NCBI GenBank assembly: GCA_963848485.1
Contig: CAWKDX010000001.1
Span: 235,145 to 299,144 of the forward strand
Source of the DNA: an uncultured Acidimicrobiia bacterium
GTDB taxonomy: Bacteria; Actinomycetota; Acidimicrobiia; IMCC26256; JAENVU01
DNA: 64,000 nt
Direction: 5' to 3'
Notes under the pieces: model-generated
What the model saw: the letters and a program-made list of their open reading frames with translations, nothing else
Databases searched by the model: none
What the model was told of the DNA's origin: nothing
Shown here: positions 1 to 38,372 of the stretch, one piece after another
Layout of the letters: every line of letters starts with the position of its first letter
Numbering within the stretch: the first letter of the stretch is position 1
Position numbers and translations under genes: made by a program

Positions 1-560
1 CGAGCGGCGCGTAGTGCTCGAACGCGGCGGCGATCCGCATCGACCTCGCCCGAGCCGAGGAACACGAGGGCGTCGGGCTCGGGCCCGGCCAGCGGCGGCC
101 ACCCGGGCGGCGCTCTCGGCACTTCCGCGCGGCCGCTGCTGTCGACCGCCAGGTGATCCGGGGGTGCGCCGGACCGCTGCCCGGCGCCGCGCGTTCCCGA
201 CGCGCGATGACCCGGCCGTGGCCGAGGAGGTCGCAGATCGAGGCGGCGAAGAAGCGCGCGGCCCGGCGAGCCCGGCGTCGTCGCCGACCAGCACGATCGT
301 GCCGGGTCGCAGCTGGACGATCAGCTCCTGGTACGCGTGCAGGTCGGTCGGGTACCGCATGACCGGCTCGGCCGAGCCAGGTCGCCTCCCGCCAGGCCTG
401 GTGGTCCCAGAGCGCCTCGATCGCGGCGAGCTTCAGCTCGTCGGGGACCGGGACCGCCGGCGCCGGCCGTCGCGTCGCCCGCCGGGTCGCGGAGCGCGTC
501 GAAGCGCGACGCCCGATCTCGCGGCGCGACCGGGTGCGCCGCGGCGGCTTTGGTGCTCAT
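1..560 (-). CDS. CmcI / cephalosporin-hydroxylase-family methyltransferase-like protein (3' end leaves the window; frame-interrupted)
   Basis: Minus-strand translation stitched over three frames gives LKLAAIEALWDHQAWREATWLGRPVMRYPTDLHAYQELIVQLRPGTIVLVGDD...FFAASICDLLGHGRVIA. This is the WLG / P-x-DL-x-YQE / ASICDLLG-x-G-x-VI pattern I recognise from CmcI-family proteins. Candidate ATG at 560-558. At least two frame changes between about 200 and 480. The 5' boundary with the upstream GT2 is unresolved. Confidence 0.5.
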
Positions 561-1415
561 CGCGCCGACGAAGTGGACGGGCCGGTCGAGGCCGATGAGC
601 GGCCGGCCGCGGAGCTCGCGGAAGTGCGCGCCGTACGAGCGCGACGCGGTCGCGGCGGACGGCTTCGTCGGCCACGTTCGTGGTCGTGCCGCCGTGGAAC
701 TGGTGGAAGGTGCCCTCGCCGAGGATGCTCGCCGCGTTGACGCCCGGCGCCAGCCCGAGTCGCTCGAACAGGTCGAGGTTCGCGTAGCCGCCGCCGGGCA
801 TCGAGAAGCTGTCGTCGTAGCCGCCGAACTGCTCGACGAGCTGGCGGGGCACGAAGAGGCAGTTGCTCTCGACGATGCCGTCGAACCAGTCGCGCTCGCC
901 GATGAAGTGGCCGATCTCGAACAGGCGGTAGCCGTCGGCCGGCCACTTGATCCGGCTGAACAGCCGGTCCTCGACCGCCTGGTCGTACCCCGCCTGCTGC
1001 GCGTCTCCCTGCTGGCCCGGGCCGACGTACCACTGCTGGGTCGCGACGATGGCCGGGCGCGTAGGTCTGCAGCGCCAGTCATCCCGTAGCGCAGCACGCC
1101 GGGGGTGAGCACGTGGGCGCCGTCGATCATCAGCGCGAGCGACTCGCCACGGGCCATCGCGATGCCTGCGTTCAGCGCGACGGTCGGCGACGGCGACGCT
1201 CGCTTCGTCGACTGATCACGAGCCGGAACTCGGGCCGAAGCGCGGCGACGTCGTCCTCGCTGAGCCGCTGGTCCGGGCTCCGAGCCGTTGTCGATGACGA
1301 TCACCTCGTAGTCGAGGTCGTCGATCCCGCGCTGGTACGAGCGCGACAGCGAGTGCAGCGTTCGCGCCGCCTCGCGGCGCATGTTGTGGAAGACGACGAC
1401 GACGCTGAGCGGCAC
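561..1415 (-). CDS. Family-2 (GT-A) glycosyltransferase, paralog of 31195-32234 (frame-interrupted)
   Basis: GTG at 1415. VPLSVVVVFHNMRREAARTLHSLSRSYQRGIDDLDYEVIVIDNGSEP, then ...SPSPTVALNAGIAMARGESLALMIDGAHVLTPG..., and C-terminal ...MPGGGYANLDLFERLG...LGEGTFHQFHGG (ORF 433-852 frame). Collinear by eye with the copy at 31195-32234. A compensating pair of frame changes lies near 1280 and 1210, with more further on. No in-frame stop is visible, so the 3' end is a guess. Confidence 0.6.
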
Positions 1416-1439
1416 CGACGCCGCCGGCGCGGCGCGGCG

Positions 1440-3151
1440 CAATCGCCGGGCGAGGCGAGGGATCCCGGGTGCGTGAAGTCCAACGCCGCAGTCCCGAGCG
1501 CCGCGGGCTCGGCGGCATCGAGCGGGACGCGCCAGGTCCACGAGTTCGCGTCGATCCGCTCGACCGGCGCCGTCAACCCGAGTCGGTCCCGGCCTCGGTG
1601 ACCGAGCCCGCTCGACGACGGGATCGGCGGTGCCGGCGACGATGACCACTGCGCCGGGGGAGAGGCGCGGATGGACGCGCTCGAGCATCGCGCCGAGCAG
1701 TCGCCCGAGGCTCCTCGCCGAGGCGGACGAGCGCGAGCCGCTCGATCGGAGCGTCGGCGAGCGTCGCGGCCGGCGCGCCCTGCAGGAACCGAACGCGGTC
1801 GTCGAGCAGACCGAACCGGGCGAAGCCGTCGCGGACCTGGTTGAGATCGCTGCGGAAGCGTTCGACGATGGCCCGGGCGTCTCCGGCGGGTTCATCCGCC
1901 GGTGGACTCGTCTGCCGTGGCCAGGAACGAGTCCGCGACCCACACGGTGCGGTCGGTCATCTCGTGGGCCGCGAGGAACGCGCGCAGGAACACCGCGCCG
2001 CCGCCCCGTCCGGTGCCGATCTCCGCGAGGTCCCCCGGTATCTCCTCGGTCCTGATCGTCAGCAGGGCCGCCTCGAGCTGGTCGAGCTGGGCGCGGCCCA
2101 TCTCGGTGTAGGGGAAGTAGGCGGGGGTGCGGCCCTCGTCGCACGCTGAACCCGGCGGTCCGCATCTGCGTGAGTCGCGCTGGAAGCGGACCGGGAGGAA
2201 CCGGGCCGGATCCCGAAGCGCGTCCGGGTCGACCGCATCGCGGTCCACGAGGGTGAGCAGGTATTCGAGGCGGACCTCGTTGTCGAGGTAGTGCTCGTCG
2301 AGCAGCGCGGCCTTGGCCAGCTCGAGGTAGCGCTGCGCCGATCGCTCGATCTCGCCGTGCAGGTTGCGGATCCAGGCCTGGTTGAAGATCGCCTCGTCGA
2401 TCCGGATGCGCTCGGCCAGACGTACGAGCGCCTCCTGGCCGACCAGGCTGTCGAACCGGTCGAAGAGCGCGGCGAGCTCCGGAGCGGCATCCAGGCGAGC
2501 CTGCTTCGGCAACGATGGCGAGGCCGTAGTACGACGGGCAGGACGACTCGCCGCAGTGGCCGGTCGTGCTCGGCCATGAAGTCGTCGAGCGCGGTCATCA
2601 CGCCGTTGCGTTCGCCCCCTTCCTGCTCGGCGTTGTCGAGGGTCAGGTTCATCCCGCCGTTGGGGAACAGCCGGGAGGTGCCCGGGCGCATGCCGGCCTT
2701 GCGGTAGGGCTGGCGGAACTCCGCGCGGGATGCGCGACGGCTCGTAGTACAGGTCCCGACGGCCGTAGGGCCAGCCGACGTCGTGCAGGACCAGCACCGG
2801 CAGCGCCGCTGCCGGCCTGGCGGGCGGTGTCGGCCAGGATCTTCAGCTCGTGGTACACGGTGAACCAGTTGTGGTCGCCGTCGACGAGCGCGACGTCGCG
2901 TCGGCGGAAGCTGGGGGAGCACGTCGTGGCTGATGCCGAGGTGGAAGACGTACTGCCCGGGGAACGCCCGCTCGTGCTCGTCCGGGTCGAACTGCGGGAG
3001 CGGGTCGATGACGTGGAGCTCGCAGTCGGGGCCGAGCCGCTTGCAGCATGCGGACCGTCGTCTCGCCCCGGAGTGCGCCGATCTCGACGACGCGGCGCGC
3101 CCTGACCGCCTCGATGACGGGTGCGATGACCTCGTCCCAGAACGGAAACAT
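1440..3151 (-). CDS. Two-domain SAM-dependent methyltransferase: class I MT N-terminal domain, coiled-coil linker, TylF/MycF-type O-methyltransferase C-terminal domain (frame-interrupted)
   Basis: ATG at 3151: MFPFWDEVIAPVIEAVRARRVVEIGALRGETT...DVALVDGDHNWFTVYHELKIL...LVLHDVGWPYGRRDLYYEPSRIP. Linker: ...LVGQEALVRLAERIRIDEAIFNQAWIRNLHGEIERSAQRYLELAKAALLDEHYLDNEVRLEYL. TylF-like part: YFPYTEMGRAQLDQLEAALL...IPGDLAEIGTGRGGGAVFLRAFLAAHEMTDRTVWVADSF...LERVHPRLSPGAVVIV...PVERIDANSWTWRV. Pieces are spread over ORFs 2843-3151, 2059-2922, 2649-3221, 1892-2797, 321-2165 and 1301-1576, requiring at least 5 frame changes. No stop is visible before the GT2 start. Confidence 0.6.
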
Positions 3152-3213
3152 CGCTCAGCCCTTGGTGATCACGAAACCGACGGTTCGGCCGAGGGACCAC
3201 GCACGGTCTCTCC

Positions 3214-3229: not shown

Positions 3230-3337
3230 CTCGGACTCTTTATCACAACGGCCCGGGTTGCTCCCGTAGCCGACCGGCGACTCGGCGCGGCGAGACTGAC
3301 GGCGCGCAGGTGGCCTGCTCATGACGGCGGCCCGGGG

Positions 3338-4396
3338 ATGAAGAAGGTTCCGATGGCGAATCCAGACCTCCAGGCGGGCCGGGAGGGGTCGGATTGGCTC
3401 GCGGAGGCGGCCTTGCTCGCGGCTTCGGGACGAGGTCAGGAGGGCATCCGTCTCCTCAGCGCCGCGAACCGCGCGCGCTCGGATCCCAGGATCGAGGAGC
3501 GGCTCGTGGGGCTCCGCCACGAGACCTTCGCAACGCTGGATCGTCGAGCGCCCGATTGCCCCCCGTCCCCCATCACCGCGCGGCCGGGCGCCTCCGCCAC
3601 GCTCCCGGAGCTCGCTCCCCACGAGCTGACCCCCACGACACTGCGCGATGGTCTGGCTCGCCATGGCTGCGTCTTGGTCCGCGGGCTCGTGCCGCCCGGT
3701 CGGAGCACCCGCCTGGCCGAAGGGATCGACCGCGCGCTCGACGCCTTCGACCAAGGAGCGCAGGGAGCTCCGGCCTCGACGACCGCCCCCTGGTACGTGC
3801 CCTTTGTCCCGACGACGGGCGACTACAGGGTGGGCGGCAGGCGCAATTGGGTTCGGGCGAGCGGCGGAGTCTGGACCGTGGACTCGCCCCGGATGTTGTT
3901 CGAGATCCTCGAGTTGCTCGACGAGACGGGGATCGGCGATCTGGTCACCGCGCACCTGGGCGAGCGCCCGGCCCTCTCGGCGAACAAGTGCACGTTGCGC
4001 AGGGTCCCCCTGACGTCGAACACGGAGTGGCACCAGGATGGAGCCTTCCTGGGCGCGAGCGTGCGTACCGTCAACCTCTGGTTGGCGCTCTCGGATTGTG
4101 GTGTCGACGCGCCCGGCCTGGACCTGCTCCCGCGGCGGCTCGATCACGTGGTGGAGACCGGCACCGAGGGGGCGATCTTCGACTGGTCGGTCGCGCCTGA
4201 CCGGGTCGACGCCCTGGCGGGGGATGCACCGGTCGTACGTCCCCGGTTCTTCGCGGGCGACGCCCTCCTCTTCGACCACCTCCTCCTCCACCGGACTGCG
4301 GTCGATGCCGGGATGACTCGGGAGCGACATGCCATCGAGACCTGGCTCTTCGCGCCCTCCGTCTACCCGGAGGGCCAGATCCCCATCGTGTACTGA
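3338..4396 (+). CDS. PhyH-like Fe(II)/2-oxoglutarate dioxygenase with about 70-aa N-terminal extension
   Basis: Uninterrupted frame within ORF 2933-4396; ATG at 3338 (MKKVPMANPD...). LTPTTLRDGLARHGCVLVRGLV start typical of the PhyH family. HxD motif in TEWHQDGAF and a distal His in LLLHRT. Confidence 0.7.
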   Translation: MKKVPMANPDLQAGREGSDWLAEAALLAASGRGQEGIRLLSAANRARSDPRIEERLVGLRHETFATLDRRAPDCPPSPITARPGASATLPELAPHELTPTTLRDGLARHGCVLVRGLVPPGRSTRLAEGIDRALDAFDQGAQGAPASTTAPWYVPFVPTTGDYRVGGRRNWVRASGGVWTVDSPRMLFEILELLDETGIGDLVTAHLGERPALSANKCTLRRVPLTSNTEWHQDGAFLGASVRTVNLWLALSDCGVDAPGLDLLPRRLDHVVETGTEGAIFDWSVAPDRVDALAGDAPVVRPRFFAGDALLFDHLLLHRTAVDAGMTRERHAIETWLFAPSVYPEGQIPIVY

Positions 4397-4456: not shown

Positions 4457-5533
4457 GTGACGAGCAGAGGAGGGGCATTGATCGGCTTCACCGACTCGAC
4501 GGATCTGCTCGATGATCCCGAGGCACTGCGCCGGCGCTTCAGCGACGACGGCTATGTGCTCCTCCGCGGGGTGGTGGATCCGGAGCTGCTCTTGGAGGCA
4601 CGGCGCGCAATCAGCGGGATCTGCGAAGCGCACGGATGGTTCCAGCCTGGCACCGACCCGATGGATGCCATCTGCCGCGTCGAGCCGCGCGTGGAGGGCG
4701 AGCGGCTCTTCTTCGAGGTGTACGACGAGATCCAGAAGCTCGAGGCACTCCATGCGGTGCCCCACGATCCAGCAGTGGCCAGGCCCATGATCGCGCTGCT
4801 GGATGAAACCGCGTTTCCCCACCCGCTCTCGATCGCGCGACTGTCGTTCCCGGACAACGAGGAATGGTCGACCCCGCCGCACCAGGACTTTCCCAACAAC
4901 CAAGGTACCGAGGAGCTCTACGCGTGTTGGATGCCGCTCGGCGACTGTCCGGTCGCGCTCGGGGGTCTCAGCGTCCTTCGCGGCTCTCACCGGCTGGGCA
5001 TCGCGCCGCTCGAGGCGGCGCTGGGGCCGGGTCACCGTCAAGCCAAGCTCGATGATCGGCACGCGCAGCTCGAATGGGTCGGAGGGGACTTCCGTCTCGG
5101 CGACGCGATCATCTTCCACAGCCTGACCGTGCATCGATCCCTCCCGAACTCCACTGATCGATTGCGGCTGTCGGTGGACTACCGGTTCCAGCGGGAGGGC
5201 GACGCGCTCACCGAGGGATGTCTGCAGCCCCATTTCGGCCGAGTCTCCTGGGCCGAGGCGTACGAAGGCTGGCGGCGCGACGACCTCAAGTACTACTGGG
5301 AGAACAAGCGCTATGAGATCGTTGCGTGGGACGGCGAGGGCTTCGCCGTTCCCGACGACGAGTACGAGGCCCACATGCGTGCATGGCTCAAGTGGCGCGG
5401 TCGCCATCCACCGGTCGACGGCACCCCGGTCTCGGGGCAGGACGTGGCGCTGCGTTGGCGGAACGAAGGGAGGGTCGAAGCGGTCAACGATGTCGACCGC
5501 CGCCCGACGACCGCCGCGGGGAGCGAGGGCTGA
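4457..5533 (+). CDS. Phytanoyl-CoA dioxygenase (PhyH) family Fe(II)/2OG oxygenase
   Basis: Intact 358-aa ORF with GTG start. RRRFSDDGYVLLRGVV, HxD in PPHQDFP, distal IFHSLTVHRS and RLSVDYRF (2OG-binding Arg pattern). Confidence 0.75.
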   Translation: MTSRGGALIGFTDSTDLLDDPEALRRRFSDDGYVLLRGVVDPELLLEARRAISGICEAHGWFQPGTDPMDAICRVEPRVEGERLFFEVYDEIQKLEALHAVPHDPAVARPMIALLDETAFPHPLSIARLSFPDNEEWSTPPHQDFPNNQGTEELYACWMPLGDCPVALGGLSVLRGSHRLGIAPLEAALGPGHRQAKLDDRHAQLEWVGGDFRLGDAIIFHSLTVHRSLPNSTDRLRLSVDYRFQREGDALTEGCLQPHFGRVSWAEAYEGWRRDDLKYYWENKRYEIVAWDGEGFAVPDDEYEAHMRAWLKWRGRHPPVDGTPVSGQDVALRWRNEGRVEAVNDVDRRPTTAAGSEG

Positions 5534-5622: not shown

Positions 5623-7547
5623 ATGGTGGCCCGTCCAGGACCTGGAGAGCAGCCGGGTCGCGATGTCGAGCGGGAGCTCGAAGCGGAGCGGGCGGCCGTC
5701 GACCATTGGCGGAGCATCGCCGAGCGCCGGTCCGCCGAGTACGCGACCCTGCGGAACCGTCCCTTGGTTCGGGCGCTGCTCGGGCTCGAACGGCGCCTCC
5801 GGCCCGCCCGCGTCCGGGCCTCGAAGGCCTCCCGGGAGCTGCGGAGCTCTCTTGATCGGGGGGTGCTCAGCGTCAGCGCCCTGACGCGCTTCGGCTCGGA
5901 CCGCTCCCAGACGCGGATTTCGGAGACGATGGATTCGGCGGCGGCCGGCGACGACCGCCGCATCACGGTGGTGGTCTTGGGCGACCAAGAACGGCCGCTC
6001 CCTCCCGAGTCGCTTGGTGATGCGGTCCAGGTGGTGCGCGTCAGCCAGCCCGACGGCGCGGTGCGGGCCATCCGGAGCGCGGTCGAGGAGACGGACCCGG
6101 ACCTCGTCGTCCTGGTTCTGGGCGCGAGCGAGCCACTGGGCGACACGTGGCTCTCGGGGCTCGGCGCGGCCGTGGGCGACGGCGTCGTTGCCGCAACACC
6201 CCTGCTGGTGCACCCGTGGCGGCAGCGTCGCTCGGCCACGCCCCACGACGGACGCATCCGAGCCGCGGGCCTGTCGATCGAGCCCGACGCGTGCGGTGTC
6301 CCGATCGTCCGAGGTGTCTTCGCCGGCGCCCGACTCGAGCCCGACGGTGCGCCCCGCGAGGTCGAAGCGGCAAGCGCCTGCCTCGTCATCGACCGAGCTG
6401 CCTACGACCGGGTCGGCGGTCTCACGATCATCGACGATTTCGACGTTGCGATCGTCGAACTCTGCGCGCGCCTCAGGGCCTCGGGTGGCCGCATCGTCGT
6501 TGTCCCGAGCGTCGTCGTCGCCGACCATCGACCGGTGCGATCCCGCCAAGAGCTTCGCGGCCCGATCGACCTGACGAGCCCGGCCTGGAGGGCGGCGGTC
6601 GAGCGGTGCGGAAGCAGTCTGTTCCGACCGGCGGAGTTGGAGGCGGCTTTACGCCTGGTGCTGACCGTCGCCGCGCCGTCGCCGAAAGTCGCGGCGCGTT
6701 GGGGCGACTGGCACCTCGCCGAAGGCCTTGCTCGCAGCCTGCGACGGGCCGGGGCGCAGGTGCGGGTTCAAACGGCGCGGGATGCCGATGGCCTGGCCGG
6801 TCGGGTGTGCGACGTCCACGTCGTGCTCAGAGGTCTCCAACCGGTCCGCCGTACCGTCGGCCAGCGCCACGTCCTCTGGATCATCAGCCACCCGGAGTCG
6901 ATTGAAGATCAGGAGCTGGACGCCGCGGACCTCGTGCTGGTGGCGTCGGCTCCGTTCGCCGAGCATCTTCGGACCCGGACCGGGACTCCTGTCGATGTGC
7001 TCCTGCAGGGCACGGACCACCTCCGGTTCCGACCTCGCGTCCCGGATCCGGCGCACCGGCACCCGGTCACCGTGGTCGCCAAGACGCGCGACGTTCTGCG
7101 CCCCGCCGTCCTCGACGCGCTCCAAGTGGGGATCCGACCCAGCATCTACGGCGCGGGTGGCGCGATCTCGTCGACCCTGATCTCGTCGTGGCCGACTCCG
7201 TGGACAACGAGATGCTTCCTGTCGTCTATTCATCGGCGGGACTGGTGCTCAACGACCATTGGGCCACCATGCGAACCTGGGGTTTCGCGTCGAACCGTCT
7301 CTACGATGTGCTGGCGACGGGGACCCCGGTCATCTCGGACCCGGTGGCGGGTATGCGCGAGCTGTTCGACGGCGCGGTGCTGGAGTACCACGATCCCGAG
7401 GAGCTCAGGCGCCTCGTGGACGAAGTGCTCGCCGAACCGGATCGCGCCCGGCGACGCGCCGCGGATGGTCGAGCGGTGGTGCTCGCGCGGCATACCTTTG
7501 ATCACCGCGCCGCGGAGCTCCTCGCGGCGCTCGATCGCCACCCGTGA
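5623..7547 (+). CDS. Glycosyltransferase: coiled-coil N-terminus, GT-A-like middle, CgeB-like (GT-B half) C-terminal domain (one frame change)
   Basis: ORF 5623-7590 reads well up to ...GIRPSIYGAG. It continues in the ORF 7188-7547 frame: WRDLVDPDLVVADSVDNEMLPVVYSSAGLVLNDHWATMRTWGFASNRLYDVLATGTPVISD...ARHTFDHRAAELL. Frame change near 7157. Confidence 0.6.
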
Positions 7548-7578
7548 CTGCGTACGACGTGGCTCACATCGCTACGGT

Positions 7579-19250: not shown

Positions 19251-19254
19251 ACGA

Positions 19255-21698: not shown

Positions 21699-21793
21699 TC
21701 GACGACCTGCTCATCGACCTCGCGTGGTCGTGGTGGTCGTCGGAGTCTTCGACCCCGACGACTGACTCGCTCCGGTGCTCGGCCCGGTGATGT

Positions 21794-22845: not shown

Positions 22846-22870
22846 CTCGAACTCCTTTTTCTTTGAGTTC

Positions 22871-23714: not shown

Positions 23715-23723
23715 CGCGCTGCC

Positions 23724-24524: not shown

Positions 24525-24568
24525 CGCGCGTGTGGCGCGAGACGACCGGTCCCAATGGTCGGTTGCGG

Positions 24569-27624: not shown

Positions 27625-27723
27625 GGGATTCCCCGGGGAGAAGAGTGTGGCTTTTGACCTATCGGTCGGAAACCGGCACTCCTGAGCAATTTCCTGCTCG
27701 CTCACGGCGTGGCACCATGCCGC

Positions 27724-29858: not shown

Positions 29859-31198
29859 CTACGAGCGTCCCCGCGGTCGTAGCCGGCGGGAGCGCCGGCT
29901 CCGGTCGATCCCGAGCACCACGAGCCCGCCCAGGCCGACTCCGGCGAGGATGATCCCCCACGCACCGAGTCCGGAGCTCGATGAATGCCTGCCCGCGGCC
30001 TCGGCGTGGGGTGGGCTCGTCGAGGTGGTCGTCGCTGCGGACGGCTGCGCCGGCCGGGTTCGGCTCCGATCGTCCGAGCGGGGATCTGCGCGGCGAGGTC
30101 GGGTGGCAACGGCACCGGACCGGCGGTCGGTTGCGCGCAGGCCGCACCGGTGGAGCTCACGACCTGGGCCGCACCGGTGAAGGTGTTGCCGGCCACCTCG
30201 AGACCGCAGACTTCCGTGGCCAGGATCGCCGGGCTCTTCGCGATCACCGGCTGGGTGTTGTGCCGCACCAACACACCGTCGAGGCGGGTGAAGCGGAGGG
30301 GGGTGCTCCCCGCCTGCGTGTCGCTCGTGTTGTCGACCACGTAGAAGCCCGACCGCCGCGTCCCCACCGGCGCTTCTACGTCGACGGCGAGATCGCGTCC
30401 GCTCAGCGTGTTGCGGGCGATCACCACGCCGTTGACCGGTCCGTTGCCGTGGGCGGCGACGAACCGGAGAACTCCGGGACCGATGTCGTTGTCGATGATG
30501 TGGACGTTCTCGGCGCCGTAGGTGGGCGCGCCGGGCTCGAGGTCGACGGTCGCCCGGCGGGTGTTGGTGATGACGTTGTGTTCGATGAGAACGTTCCGGG
30601 CCGCGGCGACGGCGATGCCCTGCCGCCCGTTCCTCGCGAGGTACGAGTCGTGGACCCAGACTCCATCGCACCATGCCTTGTCGCGGCTCCACATGATGGT
30701 GACGAGGTCACCGAAGACATCGGTGATGTGGACGCGGTCAAGCTCGATGTCACGCGCGCCCTGGATGAGGATTCCGGACTGGAACGCCTTGTCGAACCGC
30801 CACGCGTCCCCAGCGAGGCCACCATCGGGATGGGCGCCTTTGATGACGAGGTTGCGGATCACGATGTCGGAGCCCTTGTCGATCCAGAGATGGCTCCGGT
30901 CGCGCGCACCCTCGGTCCCCGCGAAGATCCGTCGCCCCCTGCCCGTCGAGGACGATGTCGTGGCGGTCGGCGAGCTGGAGGGTGCCGTCAACCCGGTAGT
31001 TCGCGCCCGGGACGGAGCTGGATGATCATTCCGTTGGGCACGCTCGCGAAGAACAGGTTCAGTGCACCGGTCACGTCGGTGGCACCGCTCGCGTCGATCG
31101 TCGCAGGCGCGAGCACCGCGTCGCGCAGCGCGGCTTGCAGTCGGTGGCGCGGGAGCGGTGGCCATCACGAGCGCGGCGAGGGCGCAGCGCAGGATCAC
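29859..31198 (-). CDS. Secreted right-handed beta-helix repeat protein with C-terminal membrane anchor, paralog 2 (frame-interrupted)
   Basis: GTG 31198. Signal-like MILRCALAALVMATAPAP. IDASGATDVTGALNLFFASVPNG. Repeats WIDKGSDIVIRNLVIKGAHPDGG...ILIQGARDIELDRVHITDVFGDLVTI...VWVHDSYLARNGRQGIAVAAARNVLIEHNVITNTRRATVDLEP...VHIIDNDIG. C-terminus in ORF 29859-30692 frame: GAWGIILAGVGLGGLVVLGIDRSRRSRR. Confidence 0.6.
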
Positions 31199-32234
31199 GG
31201 GTCCAGGCTCCGATCAGCTCGACCACATCTCGGACGGGGGAATCGCCGAGAGAGTGGTGAGGGTACTGCGTCGTCTGGGCGCCACCCGCGCGCGGACGGC
31301 CGGTCACGACCCAGGCGGTCGCGGCTCCGTCCTGAGGCCTGGCGCGCCGAGGCCTCGATGTACGGCAGCACCGACGGCGCGACGCGATCCCACGTACGTC
31401 GGAGGGTTCGACGGCGGCCGGTGGGGCTCGCCGCGGATCGCCTCGTAGTCGGCCTGCATCTCGTCCCACGTGAAGCGGCGCGAGGTCGCGGCACCGCCGT
31501 GGAACTGGTGGAACGTTCCTTCGCCGAGGAGCACGATCAGCTCGGCGCCGTCGAGCGCGCACGCGCGGCGGTAGAGGTCGTGGTTGGCGAGCCCACCACC
31601 GGGCAGCTCGAAGCGCTCGTCGAGGCCGCCGAGCTCGGCCCAGACCTCGCGGGACGCGAAGAGGCTGCTGCTCTCACCCATGGCTCCGAACAGACCGCGG
31701 CCCGATGACCCGGCCGGAGTGCTGATGTCGAAGAGGCGGTAGCCGTCGTCCTCCCAGCCCGAACGCGGCCAGCAGCTCGTCCTCCACGGCCTGGTCGTAG
31801 CCGACCTCCGCGGCGCGCATGTGGGTGACAGTGCCGAGGTGGAACGCGGGCGCGGTGATGACCGCCCGCTCCGACAGGAGCCGGGCCCGCCGCGCGCCGG
31901 CGAGCAGGCCGGGTGATGCGAGCCGGGCGCCGTCGATCCAGAGCCCGAGCAGCTCGCCGCGCGCCAGGGCCAGTCCGTGGTTCGCGGCCCGCACCGGCGA
32001 CGGCGGTGCGGGCTCGAGCCGCTCGATCCGCAGGAGGCCGTCGAACTCGTCGAGCAGGGCCGGGTCCACCGGCTCGGACGAACCGTTGTCGACCACGATC
32101 ACCTCGTAGTCGTCGGCGTCGATCCCGTGCTGGCACGCGGCCGAGAGCGAGCGGAGCGTGCGCACGAGCTCGCGTCGCATGTCGTGGACGACGACCACCA
32201 CGCTGAGCAGGGGTGTGATTCCCACCGAGTCCAC
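31195..32234 (-). CDS. Family-2 (GT-A) glycosyltransferase, paralog of 561-1415 (frame-interrupted)
   Basis: GTG 32234 (or 32225), 5 bp after the upstream stop. LLSVVVVVHDMRRELVRTLRSLSAACQHGIDADDYEVIVVDNGSSEP...ANHGLALARGELLGLWIDGARLASPG, then ORF 31304-31681 frame ...LPGGGLANHDLYRRAC...LGEGTFHQFHGG. The stop TGA 31195-31197 overlaps GTG 31198 of the next gene. The 3' frame is uncertain. Confidence 0.6.
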
Positions 32235-32239: not shown

Positions 32240-33993
32240 TCAGGTTCGGCTGGGGGGAAGCTCGCCTGCGGCGCGCTGCAGGAAGGGGTGCCGTTGCACC
32301 TCGTCGTAGGGACCGAGCGCCGCGACCGAGCCGTGCTCGAGCACCAGCAGGCGTTCGCAGGCGGCGATGGTGCTGAGCCGGTGGGCGACGATCACCATCG
32401 TCATCCGACCGCGCAGCTCGGAGATGGTCGCGTGGAGCAGGCGCTCGGAGTGGACGTCGAGCGCGGCTCGTCGGCTCGTCCAGCACCAGCAGCTCGGGCT
32501 CGCCGACGAGTGCCCGGGCGATGGCGAGCCGCTGGCGCTGACCGCCCGAGAGCCCGCCACCGCGCGCGCTCAGCGGCGCGTCGAAGCCGCCCGGGATCTG
32601 CTCGATCTCGTCGGCGATGTGGGCCCGGGTCGCCGCGGTCACGATCTGCTCGCGTGTGACATCGGGGCGGTGGAAGGCGATGTTGTCCGCCACACGTCGC
32701 GGCGAAGAGCCGTGGCTCCTGCGGCACGACGGAGACGAGGCTGGCCCAGCTCTCGGGGGCGATCTCCTCGTAGGGTCGACCGTCGACGAGCACGGTGCCG
32801 GTCGTCGGCAGGCGGAGCCGCAGCAGCACCTGCACGAGCGTCGACTTGCCGCCGCCGGACGGACCGACGACGCCGAGCAGCTCACCCCGCGCGATCTCGA
32901 GGTCGATCCCCCGCAGCGCCGGCTGATCCCCGTAGCTGTAGGACACGTCGTGCAGCAGCATCGGACCGACCTGCTCGACGTGGACGCTGCCGAACTTCTC
33001 CTCGACCGACTCGAACTCGGTGATGGTCCGGTGCAACGCGACGAGGTTCGGCTCCACCTCGTTGACCCGCTGGCTGTAGGACTGCGCCTGCTGGGCGTAG
33101 GAGAGCGCCCGCACCATGAGCACGACGACCGCGCCGATCGCGCTGAGGTTCACTCCGCCGACGATGTAGAGCCCGGCGACGGCGCCAGTGAGGAACAGCA
33201 GCGTGGCGTACCGGTAGACCGCGATCCCGGCCAGGCTGGAGAAGCGGGTGAGGTAGCCCTCGCGAGCAGTGCGCGCGCGACTCCTGGCCGAGCAGCTCGG
33301 CCTCGGCCCGCTCGACGCCGAACACCCGCATCTCGAGTGCGAGCGCCGAGGCTTCGGCCACGGACTCCGCGTACCGACGCGTTGCTCGCCGACGAATCGA
33401 GTGGCCCGCCGACGCGTCGCCTGGGTGATCGGCCGCATGATGAGGACGATCGCCAGACCGAGGCCGATGACGGCCACCGTCGCTACCGCGCTCGACGATC
33501 AAGGCGACGCCGAGCAGCGCGAACAGGTTCATGACGAAGGTCAGGCCCTTCGCCACGGACATGGTGAGTTCCATCGCCTGCATGGAGTTGTTCGAGACCG
33601 CTTCTTGCAGCGCGCCTTCGCGGCTCAGGGCCTGGGAGTTCCACGATGCTCGCGAGAACGCCTGCACCGTCGCCGTGCGGGTGGTGGACAGGACGTCGGC
33701 CGACATCTGAGCGGTCATCCGCGCCGCGAAGATCGCCAGCACCGCGGCCACGAGGCACGCGACCACGGCGGCCCACAGCAGCGAGGTCACCCCGATCGAG
33801 TGGGTGCCGAGCAGCGGCGCCGTCACGGTGACGTGGTGCTTGTGGTCGGCGATGGCGACGGCCGCGCGGACGGTCAGGACCAGCACGGCCGCCTCGAGGA
33901 GCCCACCGAGGCCCGAGAGGATCACCAGTGTGGCAGCCGCCTGCCGCGGTGCGGGAGATATTCGCCGAGAAGGTCCCAAACAGCCCTGCGCAT
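32240..33993 (-). CDS. Type I ABC exporter, fused TMD-NBD half transporter (MsbA/lipid-A-flippase-like) (frame-interrupted)
   Basis: TMD: AATLVILSGLGGLLEAAVLVLTVRAAVAI...VSNNSMQAMELTMSVAKGLTFVMNLFALLGVALIV...AVIGLGLAIVLIMRPI. NBD: Walker A GPSGGGKSTL, Q-loop VPQEPRLF, signature LSGGQRQRLAIARAL, Walker B LLVLDEPTSALD, H-loop VIVAHRLSTI. Pieces lie in ORFs 32882-34324, 32401-33477, 31674-32885 and 32240-32560. At least 5 frame changes. Confidence 0.65.
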
Positions 33994-34211
33994 GGAGGCG
34001 ATACGCTACCCCCCGCCAAGTCGGCGGCGTTGCGCGAGCACCGGTGCTGCGGGCTCCGCGGAGTGGTTTCCGACCTGCGGAGGACGGTCTGGTCGTGCGC
34101 GGTACTCTGCGCGTTCGACGGCCTGGCCCCCGAACCAGGGCCAGGAGGCCGGTGGGGTGGAGCGGTCGAGGGCGGGGCGCTCGAGGACGGGTTGCTGTGA
34201 GGGGAGACGCC

Positions 34212-35049
34212 GTGTTTTCGACCGAGCCGCGAGCGCTGCGTTCGCTCGCGCAGCAGACGCTCAAGCGGACGGCCGCGGCGGCCGACCGAGTGCGCCCGCC
34301 CGCACCCGGCGTGGTCGTGCTCATCTACCACCGGGTGGGTGGCGGCTCCGGACTCGAGCTCGACCTCCCCGTCGAACAGTTCGACGCGCAGATGGCGTGG
34401 TTGGCCGAGCTCGGCACCGTGATGACCCTGGACGATGCGCTCGTCAGTGCTCGAGGAGGAGCATCCGGTCGGTGCGAACCCGGTCGTCGTGACGTTCGAC
34501 GACGGTACGGACGACTTCGCGGACCAGGCGGTGCCCGTGCTGGAGCGATACCGCATCCCCGTGACGCTCTACGTCGCGACGCATTCGTCCATCGAGGCGA
34601 GCCCCTTCCCTACGGCGCGCCGCCCGCCTCGTGGGCCGGTCTGCGCGACGCTCTCTCCACCGGGTTGGTGAGCATTGGATCCCACACCCACACCCATTGC
34701 CTGCTCGATCGGCTGCCCGCCGAGGAGATCGCGTTCGAACTCGACGAGCCGACACGACTCATCGAGCGGGAGCTGCAGGTCACGCCCTCGCACTTCGCGT
34801 ACCCCAACGCGGTCGATCCCTCTCCATCGGCCGAGGCCGCGGTGCGCGCGAGGTTCCGATCGGCGGCGCTCGCCGGCACGCGACCGAACCGCTATGGCAC
34901 GACGGATCTCCATCGTCTCGCGCGATCGCCGGTCCAGGCTTCCGACGGGATGCGAGTGGTTCCGGGCCAAGCTCGCGGGCGGCATGGCGTTCGAGGACGA
35001 CGTCCGGCGCGTGGCGAATCGGATCCGCTACCGCGGCGAGGTTTCGTGA
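34212..35049 (+). CDS. Polysaccharide deacetylase (NodB homology domain, CE4-like) (frame-interrupted)
   Basis: GTG 34212 after GGGGAG. VVVLIYHRVG...; VVVTFDDGTDDFADQAVPVLERYRIPVTLYVAT (ORF 34435-34671 frame); IGSHTHTHCLL; FAYPNAV. Tail WFRAKLAGGMAFEDDVRRVANRIRYRGEVS* (ORF 34675-35049). About 3 frame changes. Confidence 0.65.
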
Positions 35050-35234
35050 CCGCGATCCCTCGGCGAGCAGTTGCGCTCCAGGTGGCCCGGTATCCGGAGG
35101 GCTGGCGGCCTGTGAGTGGCGCACCGGTAGCACTCCGCCCGGCTGTCCGCGAAGACGTGGCCCAGCTCGCCGAGTTGCGCGCGTCCCGCATCCCCGATGG
35201 CTTCCTCCCGGAGCTGAGTCCCGCCTTGGTGTAG
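35045..35234 (+). pseudogene. Possible truncated N-terminal fragment of an acetyltransferase-like gene (62 codons)
   Basis: GTG 35045 overlaps the deacetylase stop (GTGA). ...VALRPAVREDVAQLAELRASRIPDGFLPEL resembles a GNAT N-terminus. It stops at 35234, 25 bp from the end of a convergent membrane-protein gene. Confidence 0.2.
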
Positions 35235-35258
35235 GCAGCCGCGCGGGTTCGCTCGACC

Positions 35259-36304
35259 TCAGAGTCGCTTCGGTCGGGAGCGGGAGACGAGTGCGGCGAC
35301 CCCAGCACCGCGAGCACCGCGGCCGGTGCTGCGAGCACCGCGGCGCGGGCGGCGAGGACCTCGAACCCGGCGATGCGCCCGAAGTAGAGCGCGAGGACGA
35401 CCTGTGCGCCGATGAGCACGGCGGGTGGTGCCGTGTCGGGGAGGGACGCGACCCGAAGGTGGCCAGGGACGCACCGTCGCGCCAGCGCGCGGCCCACCGG
35501 CTCCGCGACCAGCAGCCCGAGGCACGCGGCAGCCCCCACCGTCGAACCGGATCGCCCGACGCCTTCGATCACCGCGATCCAGAGGAACAGTCCGCACGCG
35601 GCGTAGGACCCACCGCGGCCCAGCCGAGCCAGCGTGAAGGGCCACGCCAGGAGCGTCACCGGCAGTGCCACGCCGAGCGCTACGAGCACGAGCTCCGTGT
35701 CGGGGACGGTCGCGTACATCCCGCCGAGCGCGACCGCGAAGAGCACCGGCCCGGTGCCCGACGCGGCGGCCCGTTCGTCGAGGTCCGACGTGGTGGTGCC
35801 GGCGAGCGCGGGACCAAGGACGAGCAACGCGACCGTCCAGGCGGGAAAGCCGCTCGCGCCGTCGGCGAGGAGCACGCCACCCGGCAGGGCCAGGAGCGCG
35901 CCGACGAGCGGGCCGCGCCCGACGTGTGCGCTGAGGCACCCGGCACACCAGAGTGCCGCGAGCCCCACGACCACCACGCCCGGGACGTGAACCTCTTGGG
36001 TGAACGGTCCGAGACCGCCCATGACCGCAGTGGTCGCGATGACGAACGCCAGTCCGACGCCCCCGGGAACACGACTGTTCCCATCTCCGGCTCCCGGCCG
36101 GATGGCGCGGTACCGGCTGCGAACGCCGAGGACGACCAACACGAGGAGGGCGACGACGAGGCCGGCGGTCAGTCCCGCTCCGAACTGACGCGACTCGAAG
36201 AGGACTTTGAACGTGTTCAGGTTCGGTAGGTCCACCGGTGCCCCTCGGAACGGGAGTCGCAGCGTTGTTGCCGGTCGCTCGACCGCGGTCTTTCGGTGCG
36301 ACAC
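35259..36304 (-). CDS. Polytopic integral membrane protein, family not recognised (at least 8 hydrophobic segments)
   Basis: Within ORF 34892-36304. GAGLTAGLVVALLVLVVLGV, VGLAFVIATTAVMGGLG, VVVVGLAALWCAGCL, WTVALLVLGPALAG, VLFAVALGGMYATV, LVLVALGVALPVTLLAWPF, ACGLFLWIAVIEGV, VLIGAQVVLALYFGRIAG. The likely true end is the stop at 35259 (...LAVLGVAALVSRSRPKRL*) after one frame change. The start is uncertain. Confidence 0.45.
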
Positions 36305-36383
36305 CCCGAATTCACAAATGCGTCCATATTCACGAATAAGTCGTTCGACTTACTTGCGGCCACGGACAGTGGGCGTCACACTG
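36305..36383. promoter_or_regulatory. Lower-GC divergent promoter region with a direct repeat ATTCACNAAT
   Basis: gaATTCACAAATgcgtccatATTCACGAATaagtcgttcgacttacttgc is visibly AT-richer than its surroundings. It lies between the divergent membrane-protein and wbpM-like genes. Confidence 0.3.
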
Positions 36384-38372
36384 ATGGCTCGACTCGCACA
36401 CTGCCACGGGAGGCGGCGGGCGGGTTTGCATCTGGTTGGCTGGGGGGCGGACGTGGCGCAGACATCAGACACGGTGGGTACTCGGCGGGCCGGGCCGGTG
36501 CTCTCCATCGTGCTGGCTCAGGGCGCTCGCACGCGCCAAGGGCTGCGGATCGCGGGCGACTGCGCCCTGTGGACGGTCGCTCTCTTCGCTGCCGTCCTCC
36601 TCCGGTTCGATTTCGACGCCGCCCGTGTCTCCGCCTTGGAGGTGGCGTGGCTCATCCCCGCCGCCTGGATCGCTCAGGTCGGGTTCGGCTACCTCTTCGG
36701 TCTCTACCGGCGCAAGTGGACACTGGGCTCTTTCGAGGAGGTTCCGGCGCTCGCGGCGTGTGTCGGCCTCACGACGGCCGCGCTGATCGGGTTCGACCTC
36801 AACAAGCCGGGGGCCCACTCGGTGCCGGTGAGCAGCGTCGTCGCCGCCGGGTTGATCGCGTTCGTCGCCATGGGCGCGCTCCGGCACCTGACGCGGCGCG
36901 GCATCGACCACCGACGGCGCAGCCGCGGCGACGGGCGGGAGTCGGCGATCGTGTTCGGTGCCGGCGAAGGCGGCGAGCGGGCCGTCCGCTCGATGCTCTA
37001 CGAGTCGGGCAGCCCGTTCCACCCCGTCGCGCTCCTCGACGACGACCCCGCCAAGCGGAACCTCTCGGTGCGCGGCGTGCGGGTCCTCGGAGACCGCCGG
37101 GCGATGGCTGCGGTCGCGCAACGGACGGGGGCCAAGGTGCTGGTGGTGGCCATCCCGACCGGTGACGGGGCCATGATCCGGGAGCTGAGTGAGTCGGGCC
37201 GCTCGGCCGGCCTCGACGTCCGGGTCGTCCCGTCGGTGAGTGAGCTGTTCGAGGGCCGGGTCACCGTCACCGAGATGCGGGCGCCGACGGAGGTCGACCT
37301 GCTCGGGCGGCACACGATCGAGACCGATCTCGGCGCGGCGTCGGAGTACTTGCGGGGCCAACGGGTCGTCGTGACGGGCGCGGGTGGCTCGATCGGCTCC
37401 GAGCTGTGCCGCCAGATCATGGCCTTCGAGCCTGAGCGCCTCGTGATGATCGACCGGGACGAGTCGAACCTGCATGCCGTGCAGCTCTCGATCGAGGGCC
37501 GGGCCATGCTCGACTCGCGCGATCTGCTCCTCGTCGACATCCGCGACCGGGTCCGCCTGCACCGGGCCATGCAGGAGGTCCGCCCTGACGTGGTCTTCCA
37601 CGCCGCGGCGCTGAAACACCTGCCGCTGCTTCAGTCTCATCCGGTCGAGGCCCTCAAGACGAACGTCTGGGGCACCGCCTCGGTGCTGCGGGCGGCTGCT
37701 TCGGCCGGCGTGTCGCGCTTCGTCAACATCTCCACCGACAAGGCGGCGGACTCCTGCAGCGCTCTGGGCTACTCCAAGCGGATTGCCGAAGGATTGACCG
37801 CGCACTTCGGTCGCGAGGAGCCGGGGAAGTATCTGAGCGTCCGGTTCGGCAACGTGCTCGGGAGCCGCGGCTCCGTGCTCACGGCCTTCCGGAGCCAGCT
37901 CGACGCCGGTCAGCCCCTCACGGTCACGGATCCGGACGTGACTCGGTACTTCATGACCGTCGAGGAGGCGGTCCAGCTCGTCGTCCAGGCCGGCGCAATC
38001 GGTCACGACGGTGAGGTGCTCGTCCTCGACATGGGCGATCCCGTGCGGATCGCCGACGTCGCGCGTCAGCTTGCCGCGAGCCGCACGCCGGAGGTCCCGA
38101 TCATCTTCACCGGACTCCGTCCGGGAGAGAAGTTGCACGAGGACCTGTTCTGTGTGGCTGAGACGGCACTGCCGACCGAGCACCCGCTGATCCGCCTCGT
38201 CGATGTCCCTCCGCTCGACCCGTCCTACGTCGAGAACCTCGAGACGTGCGGATCAAGCGAAGAGATGCTCGAGACGTTGCGCGGCCTCGCGCGCCTGATC
38301 GACTCCCGGATCGAGGGATTCATCGACCTCACCGCCGGCGACCCGGTCCCGAACGATCGGGTCGTGCTCTGA
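36384..38372 (+). CDS. Membrane-anchored polysaccharide biosynthesis protein, WbpM/CapD/PglF-type NDP-HexNAc 4,6-dehydratase
   Basis: Intact frame (ORF 36207-38372). N-terminal TM helices (ALWTVALFAAVLL, LIPAAWIAQVGFGYLFGLY, ...). GAGEGG Rossmann linker, then the SDR domain VVVTGAGGSIGSELCRQI...VVFHAAALKHLPL...NISTDKAADSCSALGYSKRIAE...RFGNVLGSRGSV...RYFMTVEEAVQLV. The start ATG 36384 is one of several options. Confidence 0.85.
   Translation: MARLAHCHGRRRAGLHLVGWGADVAQTSDTVGTRRAGPVLSIVLAQGARTRQGLRIAGDCALWTVALFAAVLLRFDFDAARVSALEVAWLIPAAWIAQVGFGYLFGLYRRKWTLGSFEEVPALAACVGLTTAALIGFDLNKPGAHSVPVSSVVAAGLIAFVAMGALRHLTRRGIDHRRRSRGDGRESAIVFGAGEGGERAVRSMLYESGSPFHPVALLDDDPAKRNLSVRGVRVLGDRRAMAAVAQRTGAKVLVVAIPTGDGAMIRELSESGRSAGLDVRVVPSVSELFEGRVTVTEMRAPTEVDLLGRHTIETDLGAASEYLRGQRVVVTGAGGSIGSELCRQIMAFEPERLVMIDRDESNLHAVQLSIEGRAMLDSRDLLLVDIRDRVRLHRAMQEVRPDVVFHAAALKHLPLLQSHPVEALKTNVWGTASVLRAAASAGVSRFVNISTDKAADSCSALGYSKRIAEGLTAHFGREEPGKYLSVRFGNVLGSRGSVLTAFRSQLDAGQPLTVTDPDVTRYFMTVEEAVQLVVQAGAIGHDGEVLVLDMGDPVRIADVARQLAASRTPEVPIIFTGLRPGEKLHEDLFCVAETALPTEHPLIRLVDVPPLDPSYVENLETCGSSEEMLETLRGLARLIDSRIEGFIDLTAGDPVPNDRVVL

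Follow-up and report, generated by a model that had tools for sequence, protein, structure and literature searches.

The window analysed here is a stretch of 64,000 nucleotides (assembly GCA_963848485.1, contig CAWKDX010000001.1, positions 235,145 to 299,144) from an uncultured soil-type member of the Acidimicrobiia, which is not a classical actinomycete. Its first 39.4 kb hold a locus in which four sulfotransferase-type P-loop domains (D1 to D4) are embedded in a real, conserved glycan-assembly gene set with glycosyltransferases (GTs), methyltransferases and an ABC-2 exporter (Table 1). The locus makes up the greater part of a conserved Acidimicrobiia gene island, whose genes probably build a heteropolysaccharide, both sulfated and O-methylated, on the cytoplasmic side of the membrane, with a polyprenol as carrier and a Wzm/Wzt ABC-2 transporter for export. 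Underlying this reading are the domain identities, two proteins in which a GT is fused to a sulfotransferase (GT2-Sulfotransfer_4 and GT4-Sulfotransfer_1), the conservation of the gene set and the lack of Wzx and Wzy in the window.

Sulfotransferase domains and their fusion to glycosyltransferases

A sequence-only reading of this DNA had quoted five peptides as signatures of four sulfotransferase domains that use 3'-phosphoadenosine 5'-phosphosulfate (PAPS), and had named profile searches as a way to expose members of other families. All five peptides were found on the plus strand, at 12452, 19286, 19846, 28903 and 29170. Our criterion for family membership was a score over the curated Pfam gathering threshold (GA; 27 bits for Sulfotransfer_3, 22.8 for Sulfotransfer_4 and 22 for Sulfotransfer_1). 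By this measure three of the four domains fall in sulfotransferase families (D1 in Sulfotransfer_3, D2 in Sulfotransfer_4 and D4 in Sulfotransfer_1), while D3 lies under the threshold and is assigned, with more caution, by profile-profile comparison (hhalign) and invariant motifs. The 5'-phosphosulfate-binding (PSB) loops read GMHRSGTS (D1), GLNKTGTS (D2), GMSKTGTS (D3) and GAPKAGTT (D4) and are invariant or nearly so in family alignments. NCBIfam gave no match for any of these domains, and a six-frame motif and hidden Markov model (HMM) scan across the 64-kb window found no further sulfotransferase-type loop in a coding frame.

D4 (28897-29494) occupies the C-terminal part of an essentially intact GT4 fusion protein and also scores 30.4 bits against Sulfotransfer_3. 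Among solved structures it matches the bacterial sulfotransferase 3rnl (E 9.5e-17), heparan-sulfate 3-OST-3 (1.3e-11) and, more generally, heparan-sulfate 3-O-sulfotransferases and NDST (1e-11 to 1e-9), in an alignment of ~190-205 residues that keeps three elements in register: the PKxGTT loop, the RGESTPWY Glu and the motif RRPxDRALS. The 3'-phosphate-binding motif proposed earlier for the domain at 28.9 kb is upheld, VRRPADRALS being aligned to RDPVTRAIS of 3-OST-3, and the Glu is aligned to the Glu-containing MEKTPSY segment of the same enzyme, whose Glu we take to be the catalytic base. D4 thus keeps the PKxGT(T), Glu and RxPxxRAxS elements of these enzymes; unlike them, it is fused to the C-terminus of a GT4, and the identity is low (E 1e-11 to 1e-17). 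Orthologs of the fusion (66-67% identity over full length) hold the PSB loop, the Glu and the 3'-phosphate-binding Arg and Ser invariant. For the D4 domain, no GTDB species representative exceeded 60% identity.

D2 follows a GT2 module. One fragment alone scores 31.3 bits against Sulfotransfer_4, and the frame-stitched sequence covers profile positions 2-207 of 215 (Table 1). The domain matches the solved sulfotransferases 9kf1 (1.6e-6) and 8y9p, with its putative 3'-phosphate-binding motif TIRPLDDWIDS aligned to TVRDSERWYDS of 9kf1. A 406-aa GT2-Sulfotransfer_4 ortholog in a related contig, L001, is collinear with the D2 region across three window frames at 64-87% identity.

Both fusions are real architectures, since GT4-sulfotransferase proteins make up ~30 full-length public clusters, in both domain orders, and a second related contig, L082, encodes a 744-aa protein with GT2 and Sulfotransfer_4 domains. 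Such proteins suggest a coupling between sulfation and specific glycosyl transfer steps. In a sister group of ~700-aa proteins (P0007-P0029) the order is reversed, the sulfotransferase preceding the GT4, which implies either two or more separate fusions of the modules or a permutation.

D1 (domain 12461-13037) scores 55.1 bits against Sulfotransfer_3 (E 1.7e-14); a phmmer search of PDB gave no match. In its family the HRSGTS loop is conserved, and R135, P137 and S143 of the 3'-phosphate-binding motif are invariant. Orthologs (70-86% identity, ~470-510 aa) share an unusual layout, in which the Sulfotransfer_3 domain is followed by heptad-like repeats (RDLERQRAALEAEH in ortholog P0123) and then by a basic tail with repeated KLPPPAQ..LRRGR motifs. 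An AlphaFold2 (AF2) model of ortholog P0125 has a globular sulfotransferase domain (residues 1-240) and then one continuous 113-residue helix (262-374), predicted with high confidence (pLDDT ~92-98 over residues 270-340); a short helix in the tail (410-427) is of low confidence. In the window copy the stalk stretch is frame-shifted and the low-complexity tail gave no clean alignment, so that the end coordinate of D1 is approximate. Proteins of this type are kept in Acidimicrobiales, adjoining multi-module GTs and Wzm/Wzt.

An extended coiled coil with a distal terminating enzyme has been described as 'a characteristic marker' of the ABC-dependent termination and ruler systems of Klebsiella and E. 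coli (PMC11231755, PMC3482155). The sulfotransferase domain and predicted extended helix of D1 resemble this terminator architecture, and we keep D1 as a possible, though unlikely, WbdD-like chain terminator and molecular ruler. It would cap the growing glycan with sulfate, and inside the repeat the GT2-Sulfotransfer_4 and GT4-Sulfotransfer_1 proteins would link the transfer of sugars to their sulfation. Against this, the Wzt of the locus is without the C-terminal carbohydrate-binding module that reads the cap. If D1 did act in this way, sulfate would be a terminating group so far undescribed for ABC-transporter-dependent glycan assembly.

A divergent sulfotransferase-like family

D3 belongs to a family of ~39 homolog clusters (~350 aa) that are mostly labelled 'hypothetical protein' in Acidimicrobiia, a Pfam domain being recognised in only one. 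In the window its five open reading frame (ORF) pieces together cover positions 1-349 of the family HMM. Aligned with the D4-type (Sulfotransfer_1) domain, the family profile gave an hhalign probability of 84% (E 7e-6), pairing PKTGTS with PKAGTT, E100 with the putative catalytic Glu, and VRxPAxYYxS with VRRPADRALS. An AF2 model of the family (pLDDT 93.5) has a P-loop fold. We consider D3 a probable divergent sulfotransferase, with good confidence. Neither Pfam nor NCBIfam has a model that covers the family, and a new sulfotransferase model could be built from it.

The contrary view, that some of the P-loop domains and D3 above all are kinases or other nucleotide-dependent enzymes, seems to us improbable. 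It can draw on the Sulfotransfer_3 scores of D3 (18.9-22.5 bits, under GA), on an hhalign probability of only 12.6% between the D3 family and the Sulfotransfer_3 (D1) family, and on Foldseek matches that are weak (TM-scores ~0.3) and led by E-value by zeta-toxin kinases and GPN-loop GTPases. D3 also had no NCBIfam match and no PDB sequence match, and a PDB profile search with its family returned nothing meaningful. The PKTGTS loop, however, places its Lys before Gly-Thr as a PSB loop does and is not a Walker A motif (GxxxxGK[ST]), and the invariant residues of the family (K11, E100, R131 and P133) align with the PSB Lys, catalytic Glu and 3'-phosphate-binding Arg of the D4 family. The best TM-score belongs to the sulfotransferase 3rnl, and in relatives the slot of D3 is taken by a bona fide Sulfotransfer_1 gene. 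We dropped annotation of D3 by orthology, as the Sulfotransfer_1 gene in the D3 slot of L082 was not homologous by tblastn.

Export and a proposed assembly route

The Wzm/Wzt-type and MsbA-type exporters noted in the sequence-only reading are both present, with ABC_tran matched twice. The Wzm permease scores below GA in its frame-broken state, and its orthologs are clear (68-86% identity to ABC2_membrane genes of L001 and L082). For Wzt the best NCBIfam matches are TagH and the mycobacterial galactan-exporter Wzt; its nucleotide-binding domain stops ~10 residues before the stop codon, and orthologs are of 267-287 aa. The MsbA/PglK-type exporter is 84-97% identical to its L082 counterpart, its transmembrane part being recognised by eye only.

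Two neighbours accompany the transporter. A Band_7 protein (73% identity to L001, 58% to L082) lies directly beside Wzm in three of three genomes (the window, L001 at 15981-17099 and L082 at 3269-4369). Directly upstream of Wzt is a conserved ORF of 154-170 aa that has no Pfam domain (window 24572-25036, minus strand; L001 13784-14296; L082 6107-6571) and overlaps the Wzt start by 4 nt in L001 and L082. Since Wzt lacks a carbohydrate-binding module, this ORF could encode a separate accessory subunit.

Pfam and NCBIfam scans of the window gave no family match for Wzx or Wzy and detected no PCP/OPX components. The Wzm/Wzt pair, the missing Wzx/Wzy and the multi-module GTs together fit an ABC-transporter-dependent route, in which the whole glycan is completed in the cytoplasm and then exported (PMC11231755).

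Drawing on family knowledge for the scheme as a whole, we propose that a primer enzyme encoded elsewhere would start the chain and that the WbpM-type dehydratase would provide a 6-deoxy-4-keto-HexNAc-derived sugar. Some 9-10 GT modules, several of them inside multi-module proteins, would then extend the chain. The GT-fused sulfotransferases may move sulfate from PAPS onto the residue just installed or a neighbouring one, and the free sulfotransferases D1 and D3 may decorate the chain further along with the methyltransferases. Each of the four sulfotransferases either is without a signal peptide or is joined to a GT module of the cytoplasm, as would suit enzymes that draw on cytoplasmic PAPS. 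Wzm/Wzt would export the finished chain, which the NodB deacetylase and both beta-helix (lipo)proteins could then trim or modify outside the cell.

Conservation of the gene set and its surroundings

Best named relatives of three independent proteins are metagenome-assembled genomes (MAGs) of Acidimicrobiia or Acidimicrobiales, and the closest DNA is the ENA contig L082 (79-86% nucleotide identity in blocks of 0.8-4.0 kb, ~12.8 kb in total). A synteny search in relatives, as the sequence-only reading had proposed, found the gene set again, rearranged, in at least six other Acidimicrobiia contigs. L001, L082 and a third contig, L083, share a core of GT1 / beta-helix / GT4-Sulfotransfer_1 / beta-helix / GT2 and each have a Sulfotransfer_4 gene; Wzt-Wzm-Band7 is also common to L001 and L082. 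Four GTDB MAGs (L002, L003, L004 and L007) share the GT1 / GT4-Sulfotransfer_1 core, with beta-helix homologs in L002-L004, GT2 in L002 and L007, and an MsbA-type ABC gene in L007.

Gene order is identical to the window in L082 from Wzm/Wzt to WbpM, and L083 likewise keeps the order GT4 - Sulfotransfer_3 - GT - GT2 - Sulfotransfer_4 - ... - sulfotransferase. On the 4.03-Mb contig L001, Wzt-Wzm-Band7 ... Sulfotransfer_4 - multi-GT forms a block on the other side of the GT4-Sulfotransfer_1 core. Blocks are thus inverted between genomes, and the genes nonetheless remain clustered. The slot at 19.8-21.8 kb is variable: in the window it is occupied by D3 and a methyltransferase, whereas L082 and L083 have different genes there, of the Sulfotransfer_1 and methyltransferase types. 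It falls in a segment (20000-24000, covering D3 and the methyltransferase, Band7 and Wzm) with a G+C content of 0.64, against 0.69-0.74 elsewhere. Such a slot is what might be expected of a serotype-like variable part.

The locus lies ~6 kb from a conserved actinobacterial cell-division and wall cluster (45581-52533, minus strand: pknB with kinase and PASTA domains, a PBP transpeptidase, FtsW/RodA, PP2C, an FHA protein and FhaA), beyond which follow a gene read by eye as MMPL-like (52.6-55.1 kb) and tRNA-Leu(CAG) (55223-55307, plus strand). Outside the locus there is also a second small envelope-related gene set (57408-59238 and 61295-63998, both minus strand), with Acyl_transf_3 bearing an SGNH-like tail, an NAD-epimerase/dehydratase, a GT2 and a split transketolase (N-terminal and pyrimidine-binding subunits).

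Frameshifts and assembly quality

Many genes of the locus are split across two to six reading frames, and both frame-plot and codon-model analyses show the coding frame switching repeatedly inside presumed single genes, as alignment to intact orthologs bears out. At ~70% G+C, shadow ORFs and hopping frames made plain ORF lists and GC3 filters unusable; genes were therefore called with a codon-usage model and stitched fragments, and HMM scans were run on frame-aware fragments and then on stitched sequences. The indels are unevenly spread: WbpM (2.2 kb) and GT4-Sulfotransfer_1 (2.0 kb) are untouched, while others have 4-6 per ~1-1.5 kb. The examples inspected (19248/19250, ~19340, 20150, 20320, 20450, 42512/42532 and 46751-46758) are not at long homopolymers.

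Could these frameshifts be real and the genes pseudogenes in a decaying locus? The counts within single genes (at least four frame changes in D3, at least three in GT2-Sulfotransfer_4 and at least five in the Methyltransf_24-TylF gene) would suit such a view, yet we judge it very improbable. Essential genes are equally broken: the thiolase is split at 42512/42532, the pknB kinase domain is split between frames, and the PBP and PP2C genes each lie in several frames, with a density of switches the same as in the locus or higher (23 same-strand switches in the 24.6-kb housekeeping part vs 19 in the 39.4-kb locus). The pieces of locus genes keep 64-97% amino-acid identity to orthologs with no in-frame decay, and related contigs are fragmented alike, the L082 homolog of WbpM being split into ORFs of 75, 73 and 245 aa. 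These close relatives are ENA assemblies with 'contig_NNNN' names, a style that presumably reflects long-read assemblers such as Flye. On these grounds we attribute the frameshifts to indels of the assembly and not to pseudogenisation, and presume that the organism itself has intact genes.

Table 1 Features of the glycan locus, with position in the window, strand and supporting evidence (Pfam bit scores unless stated; GA, gathering threshold).
Feature	Position	Strand	Support
GT2-family glycosyltransferase, frame-broken; paralog of the GT2 at 31.3-32.2 kb	637..1410	-	Glycos_transf_2 20.2 bits, below GA
Two-domain O-methyltransferase, N-terminal Methyltransf_24 (CmcI-like class) and C-terminal TylF	1700..3155	-	stitched HMM
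PhyH-type Fe(II)/2-oxoglutarate dioxygenase 1	3400..4396	+	PhyH 33.3 bits
PhyH-type dioxygenase 2, intact ORF	4457..5533	+	PhyH 68 bits
Glycosyltransferase, C-terminal Glyco_trans_1_2	5623..7590	+	Glyco_trans_1_2 48 bits at 7126-7449
GNAT acetyltransferase, one frameshift	10010..10991	-	ortholog only
GT4 glycosyltransferase	11196..12293	+	Glycos_transf_1 85 bits, Glyco_transf_4 48.5 bits
Predicted sulfotransferase D1: Sulfotransfer_3, long helical stalk, basic tail	12422..13950 (end approximate)	+	Sulfotransfer_3
Multi-module glycosyltransferase region: GT4/GT1 module, then GT2 module; several frames	15397..18796	+	HMM
GT2-Sulfotransfer_4 fusion (D2), at least 3 frameshifts	18560..19815	+	Sulfotransfer_4 57.3 bits, Glyco_tranf_2_3 23.8 bits (stitched)
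D3, unannotated family, probable divergent sulfotransferase, 4 frameshifts	19846..20890 (end approximate)	+	family HMM, hhalign, AF2
Class I SAM methyltransferase	21030..21700	-	Methyltransf_11 58.3 bits
SPFH/Band_7 membrane protein, adjoining Wzm	21794..22870	-	Band_7 37.7 bits
Wzm-type ABC-2 permease, frame-broken	22874..23714	-	ABC2_membrane 21.4 bits, below GA
Wzt/TagH-type ABC ATPase, no C-terminal carbohydrate-binding module	23727..24572	-	ABC_tran 68 bits
GT1/GT4 glycosyltransferase, one frameshift	25275..26463	-	Glyco_trans_1_4 83.7 bits
Right-handed beta-helix lipoprotein A, N-terminus MLRRSAVPVVLLAAAALSGC	26490..27630	-	Beta_helix 33 bits
GT4-Sulfotransfer_1 fusion (D4), essentially intact	27724..29748	+	Glyco_transf_4 67.8, Glycos_transf_1 76.6, Sulfotransfer_1 41.2 bits
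Beta-helix protein B, paralog of A, hydrophobic N-terminus	30061..31213	-	Beta_helix 28.6 bits
GT2 glycosyltransferase, 2 frameshifts	31327..32225	-	Glycos_transf_2 29.8 bits
MsbA/PglK-type ABC exporter, fused transmembrane and nucleotide-binding domains, frame-broken	32243..34100	-	ABC_tran 96.4 bits
NodB-type polysaccharide deacetylase	34212..34955	+	Polysacc_deac_1 58.4 bits
Polytopic membrane protein, family unassigned	35200..36262	-	conserved in L082
WbpM/PglF/CapD-type membrane-anchored UDP-HexNAc 4,6-dehydratase, intact	36207..38372	+	Polysacc_synt_2 322 bits, CoA_binding_3 42.7 bits
Class I SAM methyltransferase, right edge of locus	38397..39311	-	Methyltransf_25 47.3 bits

Glycosyltransferases and other enzymes

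At least ten GT domains had been counted in the sequence-only reading. Nine have HMM support (0.6-1.4, 7.1-7.4, 11.2-12.1, 16.0-16.4, 17.7-18.2, 18.6-19.2, 25.3-26.5, 27.8-28.7 and 31.3-32.2 kb), seven above GA and two below it but backed by orthologs; the tenth (5.9-6.5 kb) was recognised by eye only, as the GT-A-like N-terminal part of the protein at 5623..7590, whose C-terminus has a counterpart in L001. In the multi-module region, Glyco_trans_1_4 scores 50.7 bits at 16020-16408 and Glycos_transf_2 28.3 bits at 17672-17867, and the region is 81% identical to the C-terminal part of a 1001-aa multi-GT protein of L001. Other identities are 48% for the GT2 at 637..1410 (to the GT2 of L082), 61% for the GT4 at 11196..12293 (to the GT4 of L001), 68-72% for the GT at 25275..26463 (to its orthologs) and 85-91% for the GT2 at 31327..32225 (to the GT2 of L082).

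Of the four or more methyltransferases claimed, four domains hold up, in three proteins (Methyltransf_24 with TylF, Methyltransf_11 and Methyltransf_25); TylF (82-109 bits) and Methyltransf_24 (40 bits) turn out to lie in one protein when stitched across its frames, and 'CmcI-like' is an approximate label. HMM scores bear out the two PhyH dioxygenases, the NodB deacetylase (69% identity to L082), the two beta-helix proteins and the WbpM/CapD/PglF-type dehydratase. Beta-helix lipoprotein A has a clear lipoprotein signal (lipobox LLAAAALSGC), and protein B is 65-81% identical to its orthologs. The GNAT was recovered only through its ortholog, a 327-aa protein of L001 annotated Acetyltransf_1/9 (62-64% identity).

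In the WbpM-type dehydratase the SDR domain is preceded by a membrane and CoA_binding_3 domain, and its resemblance to extracellular polysaccharide (EPS) sugar transferases is confined to this N-terminal, non-catalytic part; the NCBIfam scores (PseB 180 bits, FnlA 143 bits) are both under equivalog cutoffs. The neighbouring membrane protein (35200..36262), with ~9-10 transmembrane segments predicted by eye, matched no Pfam or NCBIfam family. Its codon-position G+C (0.78/0.56/0.85 for GC1/2/3) and its identity to L082 (up to 77% at the amino-acid level) point to the minus strand, and the opposite-strand gene call at the counterpart of 35.2-36.3 kb in L082 was rejected on these grounds as an apparent mis-call. 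The protein may be a ligase, a polymerase or a component of GT-C-like type; we considered it as the missing WecA, Wzy or ligase, and no family match supports this.

Towards the left end of the locus lie genes for two extracytoplasmic proteins, a lipoprotein solute-binding protein of ModA/Sbp type (7581-8300, minus strand; SBP_bac_11 20 bits, below GA) and a 489-aa protein (8527-9996, minus strand) that contains Asp-box-like sequences (SSDDEGRSWSS, STDGVSWS) and matches BNR_2 weakly (16.5 bits).

Weighing the proposed product

Several points weigh against a single sulfated, Wzm/Wzt-exported polymer. Sulfate in the predicted product cannot be demonstrated from sequence. In keeping with the absences reported earlier for cysDNC, a primer of WecA/WbaP type and Wzx/Wzy, the window has no recognisable gene for PAPS synthesis, for a polyprenol-phosphate primer or for a ligase of LCP or O-antigen type. 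For the APS kinase cysC/cysNC, the source of PAPS, this applies to Pfam and NCBIfam scans, 39.5-45 kb and some other fragments having been read by eye only; for the primer, there was no Glycos_transf_4 (MraY/WecA) or Bac_transf match, and the enzyme may be encoded elsewhere. D3 lies under its threshold, and most of its Foldseek matches are P-loop kinases and GTPases. The locus has two exporters that differ from each other, its left 11 kb (PhyH, SBP, BNR-like) are without demonstrated synteny in readable relatives, and the relatives L082 and L083 are noisy assemblies too.

The two exporters, which belong to different classes, raise the question of whether 'one giant locus, one heavily decorated product' is an overstatement. 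It is possible, if less than likely, that two or more independent glycan pathways stand side by side as a mosaic; one would make a Wzm/Wzt-exported polymer, and another, to which WbpM, NodB and GT2 would belong, a lipid-linked oligosaccharide for the MsbA/PglK-type transporter to flip. The differing order and orientation of blocks between the window, L001 and L082, and the swapped, lower-G+C segment at 19.8-21.8 kb (0.64 vs ~0.70 elsewhere), would fit such a mosaic. Rearrangement has nevertheless left the same genes clustered in three or more long contigs, and L002, L007 and L082 each combine the GT4-Sulfotransfer_1 core with the GT2/MsbA/WbpM block.

A further question is the acceptor, which could be a glycolipid or a protein-linked glycan (S-layer or O-mannosyl type) instead of a free or wall polysaccharide; we think this rather unlikely. 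Wzm/Wzt routes with methyl caps also serve for the S-layer glycans of Gram-positive bacteria, the island as found in L001 has a PMT_2 (GT-C) gene, and known actinobacterial sulfation targets are lipids. Mycobacterial examples of lipid sulfation are cited in PMC8205485. Set against these points, the stretch of 1-38 kb is free of genes for an oligosaccharyltransferase, a PMT, an acyltransferase/Pks or lipid transport, the MMPL-like gene is separated from the locus by the cell-division cluster, and at least nine GT modules together with secreted beta-helix and NodB enzymes suit a polymer better.

Relation to known systems and significance

Several described systems resemble parts of this locus. 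The synechan cluster xss of Synechocystis PCC 6803 has two sulfotransferases, eight GTs and Wzx/Wzy, and like related cyanobacterial sulfated-EPS clusters it sets PAPS-type sulfotransferases of different Pfam families among ~8 or more GTs (PMC8205485). Unlike our locus, which has Wzm/Wzt and no Wzx/Wzy, xss is a Wzx/Wzy/PCP/OPX system; in the locus, moreover, two sulfotransferases are GT-fused and one appears to sit on a helical stalk, the host is a monoderm member of the Acidimicrobiia, and the product is predicted from the genes. Also comparable is the EPS cluster wps-1 of Actinoplanes missouriensis, another Actinomycetota polysaccharide cluster with sulfotransferases (two, one of heparan-sulfate type) and a methyltransferase, whose sulfated product was predicted, not shown (PMC13390465, 2026). 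It is Wzx/Wzy-dependent and much smaller, has free-standing sulfotransferases and belongs to the class Actinomycetes.

With ABC-dependent systems (E. coli O9a; Klebsiella O3, O4, O7 and O12; TagGH; mycobacterial Wzm/Wzt) the locus shares a Wzm/Wzt pair, multi-module polymerising GTs and methyltransferases (PMC11231755, PMC3482155), and D1 resembles WbdD-type terminators in the predicted joining of a modifying enzyme to an extended helix. The locus differs from these systems in that its Wzt is without a cap-reading module, that its candidate terminator would add sulfate, not a known cap, and that no primer or ligase is found in the window. A Wzm/Wzt O-antigen cluster of Aeromonas salmonicida includes a sulfotransferase-domain gene of unknown role (PMC4483657), and cyanobacterial ABC-type clusters with sulfotransferases have been noted (PMC8205485).

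Our literature search found no work on sulfotransferases in Acidimicrobiia polysaccharide synthesis, nor on bacterial proteins combining GT and sulfotransferase domains. Such a product had earlier been called undescribed for this kind of actinobacterium; this stands for the chemistry of Acidimicrobiia, and as a genomic prediction it has precedents in wps-1 (PMC13390465) and the cyanobacterial ABC-type clusters (PMC8205485). What appears to set the locus apart is its export route, its number of sulfotransferases, the GT-sulfotransferase fusions, the stalked sulfotransferase and the lineage. The key proteins are already in public MAGs, where their annotation says no more than 'glycosyltransferase' or 'sulfotransferase'.

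The value of these predictions is tempered by their basis in sequence, by the uncultured organism and by the commonness of sulfotransferase genes in metagenomes. The GT4-Sulfotransfer_1 and GT2-Sulfotransfer_4 proteins, the stalked sulfotransferase and the D3 family nevertheless offer enzymes for tests of coupled glycosylation and sulfation and for making sulfated glycans. Sulfated polysaccharides have repeatedly been called nearly exclusive to cyanobacteria among bacteria (see PMC8205485, PMC13390465), and the predicted locus runs counter to this common view. Its recurrence in several uncultured Acidimicrobiia points to a second, widespread terrestrial lineage that would use an ABC-transporter route and not Wzx/Wzy. 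On the unlikely reading that makes D1 a sulfate-capping terminator, uncultured soil Acidimicrobiia would, more broadly, be habitual makers of sulfated wall or extracellular polysaccharides.

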